The position numbers were made by a program, and so were the translations under genes. This document shows positions 14,413-29,781 of a stretch of 64,000 nt of DNA, one piece after another. Source of the DNA: Candidatus Saccharimonadota bacterium (GTDB taxonomy: Bacteria > Patescibacteriota > Saccharimonadia > Saccharimonadales > OFTM59); assembly GCA_029260855.1 (NCBI GenBank), contig JAJDCK010000009.1, forward strand, positions 1,233 to 65,232, read 5' to 3'. The number at the start of each line of letters is the position of its first letter. The stretch's first letter is position 1. The notes below the pieces were generated by a model. It saw only the letters and a list, made by a program, of their open reading frames with translations, made no database searches and was not told the origin of the DNA.

Positions 14413-15090
14413 TCATACACTTTTTAGTTCGGCGTCAAGGATCTCGTTGACTTCGGCGTCAGCTAACTTATTAAGCTCGCGGGGCACATGTGTGAATGTA
14501 ACTTTATGAAAGCCTTTTATAAGATCTTTTATAGCCTCATGTATAGGCCACAAGTCCCGGTTTTTAACCTTAAAAATGCCTTTCATCTGATTAACAACTA
14601 GTAGGCTGTCCATATAGATTGCAATATCTAATGCCCCCGCTTTGCGGGCCTCCTCCAGGCCTATCTTGACAGCCTGATATTCGGCTTGATTATTAGTAGT
14701 AATACCTTGATAGATTCCGCTCTTCTTGATAACGACGTCATTCATGTCCATTATTACGTACGCTGACGCAGACGGACCGGGGTTACCCCTAGACCCTCCG
14801 TCGGTATACAGCTTGATTTGTTTAACCACAACTGGCGGTTTTTGTTCCTTTGGTGGCGCTGCCCCAATGGCGTCTACCCTTTCTGCAAATGTACGGTCTT
14901 TATCTGTTATTTTATTACCGGCATCATGACTGGTAAGCCATAGCTCGACAGTGCTATAACTGTTTCTAATTTCAGGATGATGGGTCAACTCTTCGGCGAT
15001 ATTAGCCACTTGGTTCATAAAGGCCACAGCCTCTTTGAAGCTACCAAAGCTGAATTTCTGATAAAGTTTATTGTCTGTTTCCTGCCACAT
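14413..15090 (-). CDS. fusion protein: pterin-4a-carbinolamine dehydratase (PCD/DCoH)-like N-domain + RNase HI C-domain
   Basis: 225-aa ORF. Residues ~1-75 carry the PCD signature (EELTHHPEIRNSYSTVELWLTSHDAGNKITDKD). Residues ~90-225 carry the RNase H type 1 DEDD residues in YTDGGSRGNPG, NNQAEYQAV, IYMDSLLVV and NKLADAEVN. Confidence 0.8.
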   Translation of the reverse strand: MWQETDNKLYQKFSFGSFKEAVAFMNQVANIAEELTHHPEIRNSYSTVELWLTSHDAGNKITDKDRTFAERVDAIGAAPPKEQKPPVVVKQIKLYTDGGSRGNPGPSASAYVIMDMNDVVIKKSGIYQGITTNNQAEYQAVKIGLEEARKAGALDIAIYMDSLLVVNQMKGIFKVKNRDLWPIHEAIKDLIKGFHKVTFTHVPRELNKLADAEVNEILDAELKSV

Positions 15091-15105: not shown

Positions 15106-15181
15106 TGGTCGGGGTGACAGGACTTGAACCTGCGACCTCACGGCCCCCAGCCGTACGCGCTACCAACTGCGCTACACCCCG
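15106..15181 (-). tRNA. tRNA-Pro (anticodon GGG), CCA encoded
   Basis: Manual cloverleaf: CGGGGUG/UA/GCGC-AGUUGGUA-GCGC/G/UACGG-CUGGGGG-CCGUG/AGGUC/GCAGG-UUCAAGU-CCUGU/CACCCCG/A/CCA. Confidence 0.9.
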
Positions 15182-15183
15182 AT
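15145..15183 (-). repeat. 39-nt direct repeat, copy 1 (tRNA-Pro positions 1-37 plus 2 upstream nt, within the intact gene)
   Basis: The sequence ccccagccgtacgcgctaccaactgcgctacaccccgat is identical to 15406-15444. Confidence 0.95.
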
Positions 15184-15405
15184 GTATTTGAATAGTATAG
15201 CGTAAAGATGTCCGGGCCGTGAGGGCCTCACGATCACCTTCGGCGCCTACTTCCAGCAGGCTTGACATTGACTTGCTTGAAGCATAGCTTCAAATCAGTC
15301 AAGTGTCCTTGCGATGAGCTACAAGCTCATCTCACCCGAAACTTCATCTTTGAAAACAAGTTTTCAAGAGAAGGCTTCCTTGCACACTGCCGCTGGCAGT
15401 GCTCA

Positions 15406-15444
15406 CCCCAGCCGTACGCGCTACCAACTGCGCTACACCCCGAT
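15406..15444 (-). repeat. 39-nt direct repeat, copy 2 (orphan 5' half of tRNA-Pro: acceptor 5' strand, D-arm, anticodon stem 5' strand and loop through position 37)
   Basis: Perfect 39/39 identity with 15145-15183, located 261 nt upstream in tRNA orientation. No matching 3' half follows it. Confidence 0.95.
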
Positions 15445-15549
15445 AACTCTCGACCCTGAAAACTATAAGAGCTCCTAGAACTATACTGATAAAAATAGAG
15501 CTTTTAAAGAATTAGGCTTAGACTTGCGTACTTGAGTGCAGTTTGGTTC

Positions 15550-15646: not shown

Positions 15647-15778
15647 GCTGGAGGGCCAGATGACAACCTGGTTTATTAATCCCAGGTGGGTCTCCGCACG
15701 ATAACACCACAGCGTTATCGAATATTGGAATCCCGAATGATAAGTATTCAGATTATCATTTACTGGCCCTTGCCCAGC
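15647..15778 (-). ncRNA. candidate structured ncRNA: 132-nt four-helix junction (family not recognised)
   Basis: The closing helix pairs GCUGG+GGGCCAG (15778-15763) with CUGGCCC+CCAGC (15659-15647). Three hairpins sit inside it: AAUGAUAA/UUAUCAUU (8 bp), CGAUAAC/GUUAUCG (7 bp) and ACCUGG/CCAGGU (6 bp). All pairs are Watson-Crick. An extended -10 promoter ends 7 nt upstream and UAUUUUUAU follows. No ORF is present. Confidence 0.5.
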
Positions 15779-29196: not shown

Positions 29197-29781
29197 TTAT
29201 TTGGCGGTCATGTGATTTTGGTGAATCGTGTTGTATTCAAAGAGTTCGTCCGGGCTAAACCACAGGTCAATTTCAAAGGCAGCCTCTTCTGCATTACCAG
29301 ACGCATGAACAAGGTTACGGATTGGTCGCAGATCATTATTAGCAATTGAAGACGAGTCAAAGGAATAATCACCTGTAATGGTACCTGGTTGAGCCTTCAG
29401 GGGTAATGTATGTCCCCGGATCTTACGAACGACCTCTATAGCATGAGGCCCTTCCAGTACCAAGGCGAACACAGGTGACGAAATCATAAAATCAACCAAC
29501 CATTTCTGTACCTCCAAGCCAATTTTTAGCGCATCCTCGTGGTCGAAATGAGCCTTAGGGTCAATGCCAAGCTCTTTATAGTTGTCTAAGGTTTTTTGGC
29601 CCATGCCTTTTATGAATTCTTCGCGGTCTCGAGGATAATGCTTATTCAACAAATCCTCGGACGGAACAAACATTTTAGCACCGACTAGTTTGAGCCCCAC
29701 TTTTTCAAAACGAGTGACAATGTCACCTATAATGCCCCTTTGTATGGCGTCAGGCTTGATGACCACTAAAGTTCGTTCCAT
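29197..29781 (-). CDS. ndk: nucleoside-diphosphate kinase (long form)
   Basis: 194-aa ORF MERTLVVIKPDAIQRGIIGDIVTRFEKVGLKLVGAKM... with the catalytic-His region RNLVHASG. Confidence 0.85.
   Translation of the reverse strand: MERTLVVIKPDAIQRGIIGDIVTRFEKVGLKLVGAKMFVPSEDLLNKHYPRDREEFIKGMGQKTLDNYKELGIDPKAHFDHEDALKIGLEVQKWLVDFMISSPVFALVLEGPHAIEVVRKIRGHTLPLKAQPGTITGDYSFDSSSIANNDLRPIRNLVHASGNAEEAAFEIDLWFSPDELFEYNTIHQNHMTAK

Follow-up and report, generated by a model that had tools for sequence, protein, structure and literature searches.

This study concerns a partial duplication of a tRNA-Pro(GGG) gene, and an approximately 86 nt structured element, termed E, that lies within it, in a 64,000 nt stretch of DNA (the window; positions 1,233 to 65,232 of contig JAJDCK010000009.1, assembly GCA_029260855.1) from a Candidatus Saccharimonadota bacterium. 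The window is a chromosomal segment of Saccharibacteria (TM7), and the relatives of the gene neighbouring the duplication are almost all found in Saccharibacteria metagenome-assembled genomes. Housekeeping genes surround the locus (IF3, L35, L20, RNase P RNA, miaA and the threonyl-tRNA synthetase gene), and the immediate neighbours of the insert are a gene encoding a pterin-4a-carbinolamine dehydratase (PCD)-RNase H protein and a site-2 protease gene. All features of the tRNA-Pro locus itself are on the minus strand and are given in window coordinates. The intact tRNA-Pro(GGG) gene (15106..15181), in which the CCA end is encoded, was recognised by ARAGORN and by the Rfam tRNA model (64.6 bits), both placing the anticodon at positions 34-36. 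A first-pass annotation had reported a perfect 39 nt duplication with an orphan half upstream of the intact gene and both copies in the same orientation, and this was confirmed: the orphan copy (15406..15444) and the repeat copy within the intact gene (15145..15183) are identical at 39/39 positions, each comprising tRNA positions 1-37 and 2 upstream nt. The repeat has 2 matches in the window when up to 3 mismatches are allowed, compared to 0 expected from 100 shuffles, and no other orphan tRNA halves were found in the window. The duplication had been flagged as a possible assembly artefact, which was ruled out by the unique sequence between the copies and by the agreement of independent assemblies. 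An independent Logan contig with an identical neighbouring gene ends inside the 39 nt repeat, as expected for a true repeat.

The 222 nt separating the two copies are predicted to fold with -84.5 kcal/mol on the tRNA-sense strand (z = -4.8), none of 200 shuffled sequences being equally stable; for the opposite strand the fold has z = -3.6. All hairpins previously listed for this spacer are present, and each can be assigned to a defined part. CACUGCC/GGCAGUG is helix P1 of a first E copy (copy a) and UUGAAAAC/GUUUUCAA the distal portion of its P2, while GAUGAGCU/AGCUCAUC and UUGACU..AGUCAA represent P1 and P2, respectively, of a second copy (copy b) nested in the first. CGUGAG/CUCACG is a remnant of tRNA positions 40-46 paired with its own fold-back antisense. 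Read in the sense of the tRNA, the orphan half is followed by the 5' 71 nt of copy a (15335..15405; U-G-A-G, P1, UGCAAGG, P2, GGG), which are 97% identical to the Saccharibacteria locus L002 and matched R1, a covariance model of E, with 74.8 bits (E-value 2.5e-17). The nested copy b (15246..15334) has 89 nt, belongs to a divergent subfamily (R1, 28.6 bits, E-value 1.5e-5) and stands in place of 'GU' in ..CGGG|GU|CGCC of copy a. Comparison with the uninterrupted L002 copies identified the 3' remainder of copy a (P3 region; 15233..15245), displaced by the nested insertion. Directly 3' of E are a 7 nt remnant of tRNA positions 40-46 (CGUGAGG; 15226..15232) and a single C (15225), followed by the fold-back antisense CCUCACGGCCC (15214..15224), which is the reverse complement of tRNA positions 36-46 in their uninterrupted form, reads across the insertion site and forms the inverted repeat I11 (11/11 pairing). 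A 30 nt spacer (15184..15213), identical to L002 at 29/30 bases by eye, completes the insert; it is part of a conserved cassette inside a 101 nt block that is 94% identical to L002. The TATACT box noticed earlier is present in this spacer at 15199-15194, 12 nt ahead of tRNA position 1, and a -10 box occurs at the equivalent place in other E loci. A promoter scan placed a promoter-like TTTAAA-17-TATAGT upstream of the orphan (15480..15508), which would transcribe orphan and element.

The suggestion that the spacer holds a tRNA-linked structured RNA was borne out, as it encodes the covarying structured element E. E comprises approximately 86 nt (84-93 nt) in three hairpins, arranged as U-G-A-R, P1, Y-GCAAG, a long bulged P2, GGG and a 6-bp P3 with a conserved G.U pair. 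A degenerate core pattern retrieved copies from metagenome contigs at 120 loci or more, about a quarter of which are an unrelated coding gene. Among the metagenome matches listed, to which all counts of copies, units and model matches below also refer, at least approximately 80 are true E copies, and at least 15 tRNA species are represented by the partial copies in which they lie. RNAalifold, applied to 72 distinct copies aligned over 91 columns, predicted the three hairpins with compensatory double changes at 22/33 predicted pairs. In the three modelled helices 98.3% of the cells of the 31 pairs were paired, compared to 27-46% with the partners slid by 1-3 columns; 22 of these pairs showed double changes, and the covariation score of 0.556 contrasted with values of 0.09 or less in the slid controls. 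None of 500 shuffles reached the observed values. Retention of pairs by compensatory changes beyond all controls identifies E as a structured RNA family. G.U pairs are frequent, one of them (in P3) being nearly invariant, while A.C pairs are rare, which implies that one strand folds, either as RNA or as top-strand single-stranded DNA. Model R1 yielded at least 109 matches in 85 metagenome loci, often 2-5 per locus. Variant subfamilies have U-G-A-R, P1, Y-GCAAG, GGG and P3 in common and differ in the P2 region.

Rfam 15 gave no match on E in the window at E-values up to 10, nor, at E-values up to 1, in 15 loci whose copies are intact or larger variants. This comparison included introns of groups I and II, the hammerhead, twister, twister-sister, pistol, hatchet, hepatitis delta virus (HDV)-like and hairpin ribozymes, and tRNA-like RNAs; a known ribozyme or small RNA was rejected on this basis, and the Infernal/Rfam search proposed in the first-pass annotation thus matched no family on E. 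Hammerhead, HDV-like, hairpin and twister ribozymes were also compared by eye and did not fit. Retron-like and omega-RNA/TnpB-like elements were discarded because no reverse transcriptase or TnpB was seen beside any copy. Phage and plasmid collections, where a search for the spacer had been recommended, did not contain E, and neither did viral collections. No description of E was found in the literature; the only reports were PMC13011429 and its preprint version, on classical group I introns, which according to PMC13011429 occupy position 35/36 of Patescibacteria tRNAs. E and its architecture therefore appear to be new, matching no family tested. Model R1 detected no further credible copy in the 64-kb window. 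A weak match at 29256-29336 on the plus strand (18.9 bits, E-value 0.004), 130 nt downstream of tRNA-Arg(CCU), lies in apparent coding sequence and is probably due to chance.

The position of E within its targets follows a strict rule. In all 40 listed copies that have an intact tRNA next to them on the same strand, flank identity ends at a position p and resumes at p+3, which means that E stands for exactly two nucleotides. In tRNA-Pro(GGG) the site is 37/40, so that G38 and C39 are replaced in the window. T-loop sites (53/56 or 54/57) were found in tRNAs for Lys, Val, Gln, His, Glu, Ile, Leu, Arg, Ala, Gly and Pro(UGG), sites in the D-arm are 22/25 and 24/27, and a variable-loop site is 46/49. 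The base preceding E is G in 68/70 listed copies, and G also occupies position -2 in 57 and position -3 in 51 of them and is favoured at -4. The insertion of copy b into copy a obeys the same G-run and 2-nt rule. A 2-bp target-site duplication and an integron-type G|TT crossover were both rejected, as the flanks do not fit. When E was removed in silico, ARAGORN recognised a tRNA in 1 of 81 constructs; with 2 nt missing and no tRNA regained, the interrupted copy is probably non-functional. The targets are not limited to tRNAs, since E interrupts a partial copy of a non-tRNA hairpin (GAGCCUCCAGAGGGGGUGGGCACCGCUGGAGGCUC) at L174 and at L105/L127, where the intact hairpin lies just downstream.

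Two mirror-image architectures were distinguished. Upstream-type units (18 among the matches listed), to which the window belongs, consist of a promoter, the 5' part of the tRNA, E, a tRNA remnant and an antisense segment, and in all of them the remnant 3' of E measures 5-13 nt, most often 7-8 nt. Downstream-type units (22 listed) are located behind the terminator of the intact tRNA. After the intact tRNA and the terminator come an antisense copy of the 3' half of the tRNA, a turn and 7-13 nt in the sense orientation, and behind these stand E and the 3' part of the tRNA up to and including CCA. The antisense segment reads across the insertion site in 29 of 39 listed copies; palindromic additions from hairpin opening after transposon excision were rejected, because it is the uninterrupted tRNA, not the end of E, that the antisense continues into. 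The downstream units include a palindrome centred on the terminator loop and taking in the CCA end, exemplified by L090 with a 20/20 palindrome over CCA and terminator, a 24 nt inverted copy of the tRNA 3' half (88%) and then a 26 nt direct copy. At L151 (5197-8102, minus strand) three downstream-type units are found within 3 kb between co-oriented protein genes, and a tRNA gene is absent from this 9-kb locus.

To place the insertion in an evolutionary context we compared the region by BLAST with 80 syntenic Saccharibacteria loci. Five of them, L002, L047, L041, L048 and L023, also contain the orphan half together with the 71 nt that follow it. The shared design comprises the tRNA-Pro 5' part to G37, an approximately 86 nt E starting from UGAG, 7-8 nt of tRNA from position 40, the turn, the reverse complement of the uninterrupted site, a -10 box and the intact tRNA. 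E occupies the 37/40 site of tRNA-Pro(GGG) in L002 (two tandem units), L047, L041 and L048, and the inserts fall into a size class of 175-261 nt in five genomes. Orphan half and antisense match each genome's own tRNA-Pro, though these tRNAs differ among the genomes. Model R1 detected E in only 5 of the 80 loci. The E-bearing Saccharibacteria are phylogenetically scattered, and the closest relatives of L047, L048 and L023 do not carry E. An occupied and an empty site, the comparison recommended in the first-pass annotation, are represented by L047 and its closest relative L056 (76% neighbouring-protein identity): the two align upstream of the orphan including the -10 box, a 175 nt block is then absent from L056, and the alignment resumes through the tRNA. 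Sequence upstream of the L047 orphan is homologous to the native tRNA promoter region of L056. Between the window and L002, identity is 97% for orphan and copy a and 94% for the sequence that begins with the P3 remainder, takes in the spacer and runs into the tRNA, compared to 79-82% nucleotide identity of the flanking genes; the spacer does not drift freely, as it would in an inert scar. Copy b is missing from the L002 block, which is inverted relative to the neighbouring gene and comprises two or more tandem units. L177 has a homologue of copy b (86.6%) that interrupts another E copy at the equivalent point, in a tRNA context unlike that of the window. Nesting was seen in the window and in L177, L108 and L190. 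The first-pass annotation had not described the large family, the rule that 2 nt are replaced, the fold-back antisense of the uninterrupted site or the nested twin of the element.

Several other loci display more complex arrangements. At the tRNA-Gln loci L102 (380-1250, minus strand) and L084 (1-1000, minus strand), the intact gene is accompanied by two upstream units and one downstream unit, and the outer units bear extra variant elements. One of these tRNA-Gln orphans carries compensated anticodon-stem changes relative to the intact gene, which suggests that it derives from a different functional allele. L178 (570-1400, plus strand) contains three element copies approximately 180 nt apart (starts at 576, 758 and 941), each preceded by the same 12 nt segment of tRNA-Gln. 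At L102, L084 and L178, partial tRNA-Gln copies with E or its variants are piled around one intact tRNA-Gln. In L016 (3670-3940, minus strand) a native tRNA-Pro is split into positions 1-30 and 47-76 by approximately 250 nt. This insert has its own promoter and a complete tRNA-Pro(GGG) whose sequence type differs; beside the 3' fragment it carries a degenerate E-like segment. L023 (2400-2700, minus strand) is the sole case of E inside a full-length tRNA-Pro-like gene; in this gene an approximately 25 nt hairpin takes the place of part of the T-loop, and ARAGORN recognised no intact tRNA in the 8.7-kb locus.

We favour the interpretation, to which we give about an even chance of being correct, that E is a mobile non-coding element and that each surviving insertion lies within a partial duplication of its target. 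We infer that E moves and suggest the following course. E would land right after a G-run in the anticodon, T or variable loop or in the D-arm of a tRNA, replacing two nucleotides, and the 39 nt repeat would be the boundary duplication that accompanied its insertion into the tRNA-Pro(GGG) gene. Template switching in replication or repair would yield the direct-inverted-direct order with the turn a few nt from E; such an event agrees with how the segments are ordered and with the very short turns. The duplication would then be a by-product and not a device, and E would probably act as RNA and not as folded single-stranded DNA. The dispensable partial copy could serve as a landing pad that gathers more insertions, for instance copy b in copy a. 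Finally, the whole block may spread between lineages, probably by recombination using the conserved tRNA as homology. The block, unstructured spacer included, is more conserved than its flanks, as would fit recent transfer or homogenisation, for which the tRNA halves are the only obvious homology arms. Tandem inversion duplications, which are reportedly known from work of the Roth laboratory in Salmonella and said to arise by snap-back or template switching at quasi-palindromes, offer a model for this layout. The E units share with them the direct-inverted-direct order with short-palindrome junctions, one of them on the terminator palindrome, and very short loops, although the window keeps only 11 nt of inverted sequence. 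Unlike tandem inversion duplications, their segments span tens of nt and not kilobases, are stably kept and recur at many tRNA genes, and E is always located a few nt from one turn.

Several observations weigh against this interpretation. No transposase, reverse transcriptase or recombinase was seen near any E copy in the loci examined, and the 64-kb window holds only one E locus. E is 76-97% conserved across hosts whose neighbouring protein is 55-87% identical, and the fold-back hairpin is retained with regular geometry, which could mean selection for a host or RNA function and not selfish spread. Template switching does not obviously account for the exact replacement of two nucleotides. Conservation among the retrieved copies is moreover inflated in those columns where the search pattern fixes 21 bases or where copies were filtered for P3 pairing, and the taxonomy of the metagenome contigs carrying E is not established. 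Furthermore, L050 (1240-1445, minus strand) and L005 (2600-2845, minus strand) contain downstream-type units in the order tRNA, terminator, inverted 3' half and direct 3' part, in which a small unrelated hairpin or other sequence, and not E, occupies the T-loop position. This implies that the direct-inverted-direct layout does not strictly need E. Fold-back tRNA-Pro orphans without E were not found among 208 loci.

The strong conservation of E also speaks for a reading in which the units are functional RNA devices, with E as a small ribozyme or ribonucleoprotein scaffold and the tRNA part and antisense as a guide acting on the neighbouring tRNA, for example in trans-splicing repair of a damaged tRNA 5' or 3' part or in an RNA-level exchange of E with the target dinucleotide. 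The antisense is the complement of the uninterrupted tRNA, also at the two nucleotides absent from the sense copy, the 3' part of the tRNA in downstream units is identical through CCA in 15 cases, and the antisense arm of these units drifts by C-to-T changes that preserve G.U pairing. A junction-adjacent G.U pair recurs in L090, L153 and L196, and minimum-free-energy folds place E at the junction of the guide:exon helices. Nevertheless, we consider such a device unlikely: no catalytic motif was recognised, an 86 nt RNA is far below the size of any splicing ribozyme, the antisense segment is missing from some upstream units (L089, and L041 in part), the tRNA parts have diverged in several copies, and both the terminator palindrome and the nesting and pile-ups resemble DNA rearrangement and selfish spread, respectively. 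The bolder proposal that E represents a new class of small mobile or catalytic RNA, guided by the antisense to the uninterrupted tRNA and swapping itself with the dinucleotide or, in a variant, trans-splicing a damaged tRNA half, is quite unlikely in our estimation; were it true, upstream and downstream units would be working RNA machines and not debris. Antisense pairing on both sides of the site, an attached tRNA part and a wobble by the junction are likewise seen in group I ribozymes engineered for trans-splicing and in archaeal tRNAs that are split or contain introns and have complementary leaders. In E units, however, the intact tRNA gene is adjacent and no catalytic core is recognisable, and inspection of borders and minimum-free-energy folds, with no dedicated search made, revealed no bulge-helix-bulge arrangement of 3-nt bulge, 4-bp helix and 3-nt bulge, which leaves a resemblance only. 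We think it improbable, too, that E is a genuine tRNA intron, self- or enzyme-spliced, and the orphan a decaying intron-bearing paralogue from a tandem tRNA-Pro duplication. The insertion point adjoins the canonical 37/38 intron site, E sits in a full-length gene at L023, and Patescibacteria are rich in tRNA introns (PMC13011429), among them group I introns, with which E shares a structured RNA in the anticodon loop, a patchy distribution and a nesting that resembles twintrons. However, 2 tRNA nt are missing in 40/40 cases, so that excision cannot restore the tRNA, and a complete gene was seen in only 1 of approximately 80 listed copies, E nearly always residing in a partial copy beside an intact gene. 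The regular truncation after 7-8 nt followed by an antisense segment is also unlike random decay, and E is additionally found at T-loop, D-arm and variable-loop sites. At 86 nt E does not reach the approximately 200 nt or more of a group I core (P3-P9), and neither group I nor other Rfam models matched. A group I intron spanning the whole 261 nt unit was rejected, as no splice site within the repeat can give a 5' exon ending in U together with an intron ending in G, and this unit is also without an Rfam match.

Mobility at the DNA level has been considered in two further forms. E might be a single-stranded-DNA element, such as a miniature IS200/IS605 or HUH-mobilised relative or an attC-like site, moved in trans. 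This accords with the terminal position of the hairpins P1 and P3, an insertion site that lies 3' of a fixed, short target (the G-run), strand-specific pairing that tolerates G.T, and multiple, nested copies. More generally, miniature inverted-repeat and palindrome-associated transposable elements, for example IS200/IS605 derivatives, are similarly short, non-coding, hairpin-rich and multi-copy, insert beside short preferred sequences and can nest within one another. We nevertheless regard this origin as improbable, since such elements neither remove nor duplicate their target, whereas here two nt are lost and large partial duplications are present. In addition, the long conserved internal P2 and the junction sequences are not expected of transposon ends, and the strand-specific, G.U-rich pairing with conserved junction nucleotides resembles a functional RNA; terminal inverted repeats and a target-site duplication of fixed length are lacking, and no TnpA or TnpB was seen in the open reading frame lists of the 64-kb window and the short loci. 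The first-pass annotation had proposed an att-type scar of an integrative element. Its core, an insertion-type duplication of the tRNA 5' half, held up, but the scar of an integrase-driven element of which nearly all has been deleted is very improbable, as no integrase was found and the 222 nt are the element itself. Rules on the sublocation of attL and attR sites of phages and integrative and conjugative elements in tRNA genes were reportedly set out by Williams in 2002. Like such elements, E units are foreign DNA in tRNA genes, which are the usual targets, flanked by a direct repeat of a tRNA segment (39/39 in the window), with an empty site in a relative (L056 compared to L047); the site lies in the anticodon loop or T-loop, the insert brings a tRNA part that keeps the gene intact, and 3'-end duplications do occur in other loci. 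In contrast to integrative elements, the insert is a non-coding 222 nt sequence with no tyrosine or serine recombinase in it or beside it, it is conserved as a covarying structured RNA in a constant size class and not decayed, two target nt are replaced, and an inverted copy of the site lies alongside. The block of identity in the window covers tRNA positions 1-37, that is the 5' part together with a supplied promoter, and does not extend to the 3' end of the tRNA, which is carried by the downstream units elsewhere. Full-length integrase-bearing elements between the same repeats were not found in the 80 loci. Finally, an antisense RNA had been proposed to be transcribed from the plus strand of the spacer, where TTGACA lies 17 nt upstream of TAGCTT, and to pair with tRNA-Pro. 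This idea found no support and is exceedingly improbable: the promoter scan misses the site, the second hexamer agrees at only 3/6 positions, both hexamers lie inside P2 of copy b, the L177 homologue does not contain TTGACA, and L002, although it has the rest of the unit, has no copy b.

Patescibacteria have tiny genomes with few recognised mobile elements, and E is an abundant covarying RNA family, on metagenome contigs of unestablished taxonomy, that turns tRNA loci into arrays of partial copies, both direct and inverted. Should E be selfish, a protein-less element can inhabit essential, ultra-conserved genes without killing its host and use the tRNA as a portable homology arm; should it be functional, a new small ribozyme or a device for RNA-guided tRNA processing could be at hand. 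In either case E accounts for orphan half-tRNAs that break assemblies and confuse tRNA annotation, and as a defined 86 nt RNA it is directly testable at the bench.

The gene neighbouring the tRNA-Pro locus at 14413-15090 (minus strand) encodes a fusion of PCD and RNase H (PF01329 and PF00075) that is kept across Saccharibacteria. tRNA-Pro(GGG) adjoins this gene throughout the Saccharibacteria loci L002-L081 with an orientation that varies by lineage; it is opposite in the window and L002, which share 87% protein identity. Between the site-2 protease gene and the tRNA-Pro locus we observed a conserved structured RNA-like block of approximately 115 nt (15655-15765, minus strand), without an Rfam match and followed near 15545 by a hairpin that resembles a terminator by eye. 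This block is present beside tRNA-Pro in more than 30 Saccharibacteria loci with 70-90% identity, and compensatory changes were found at 16/35 of its predicted pairs.

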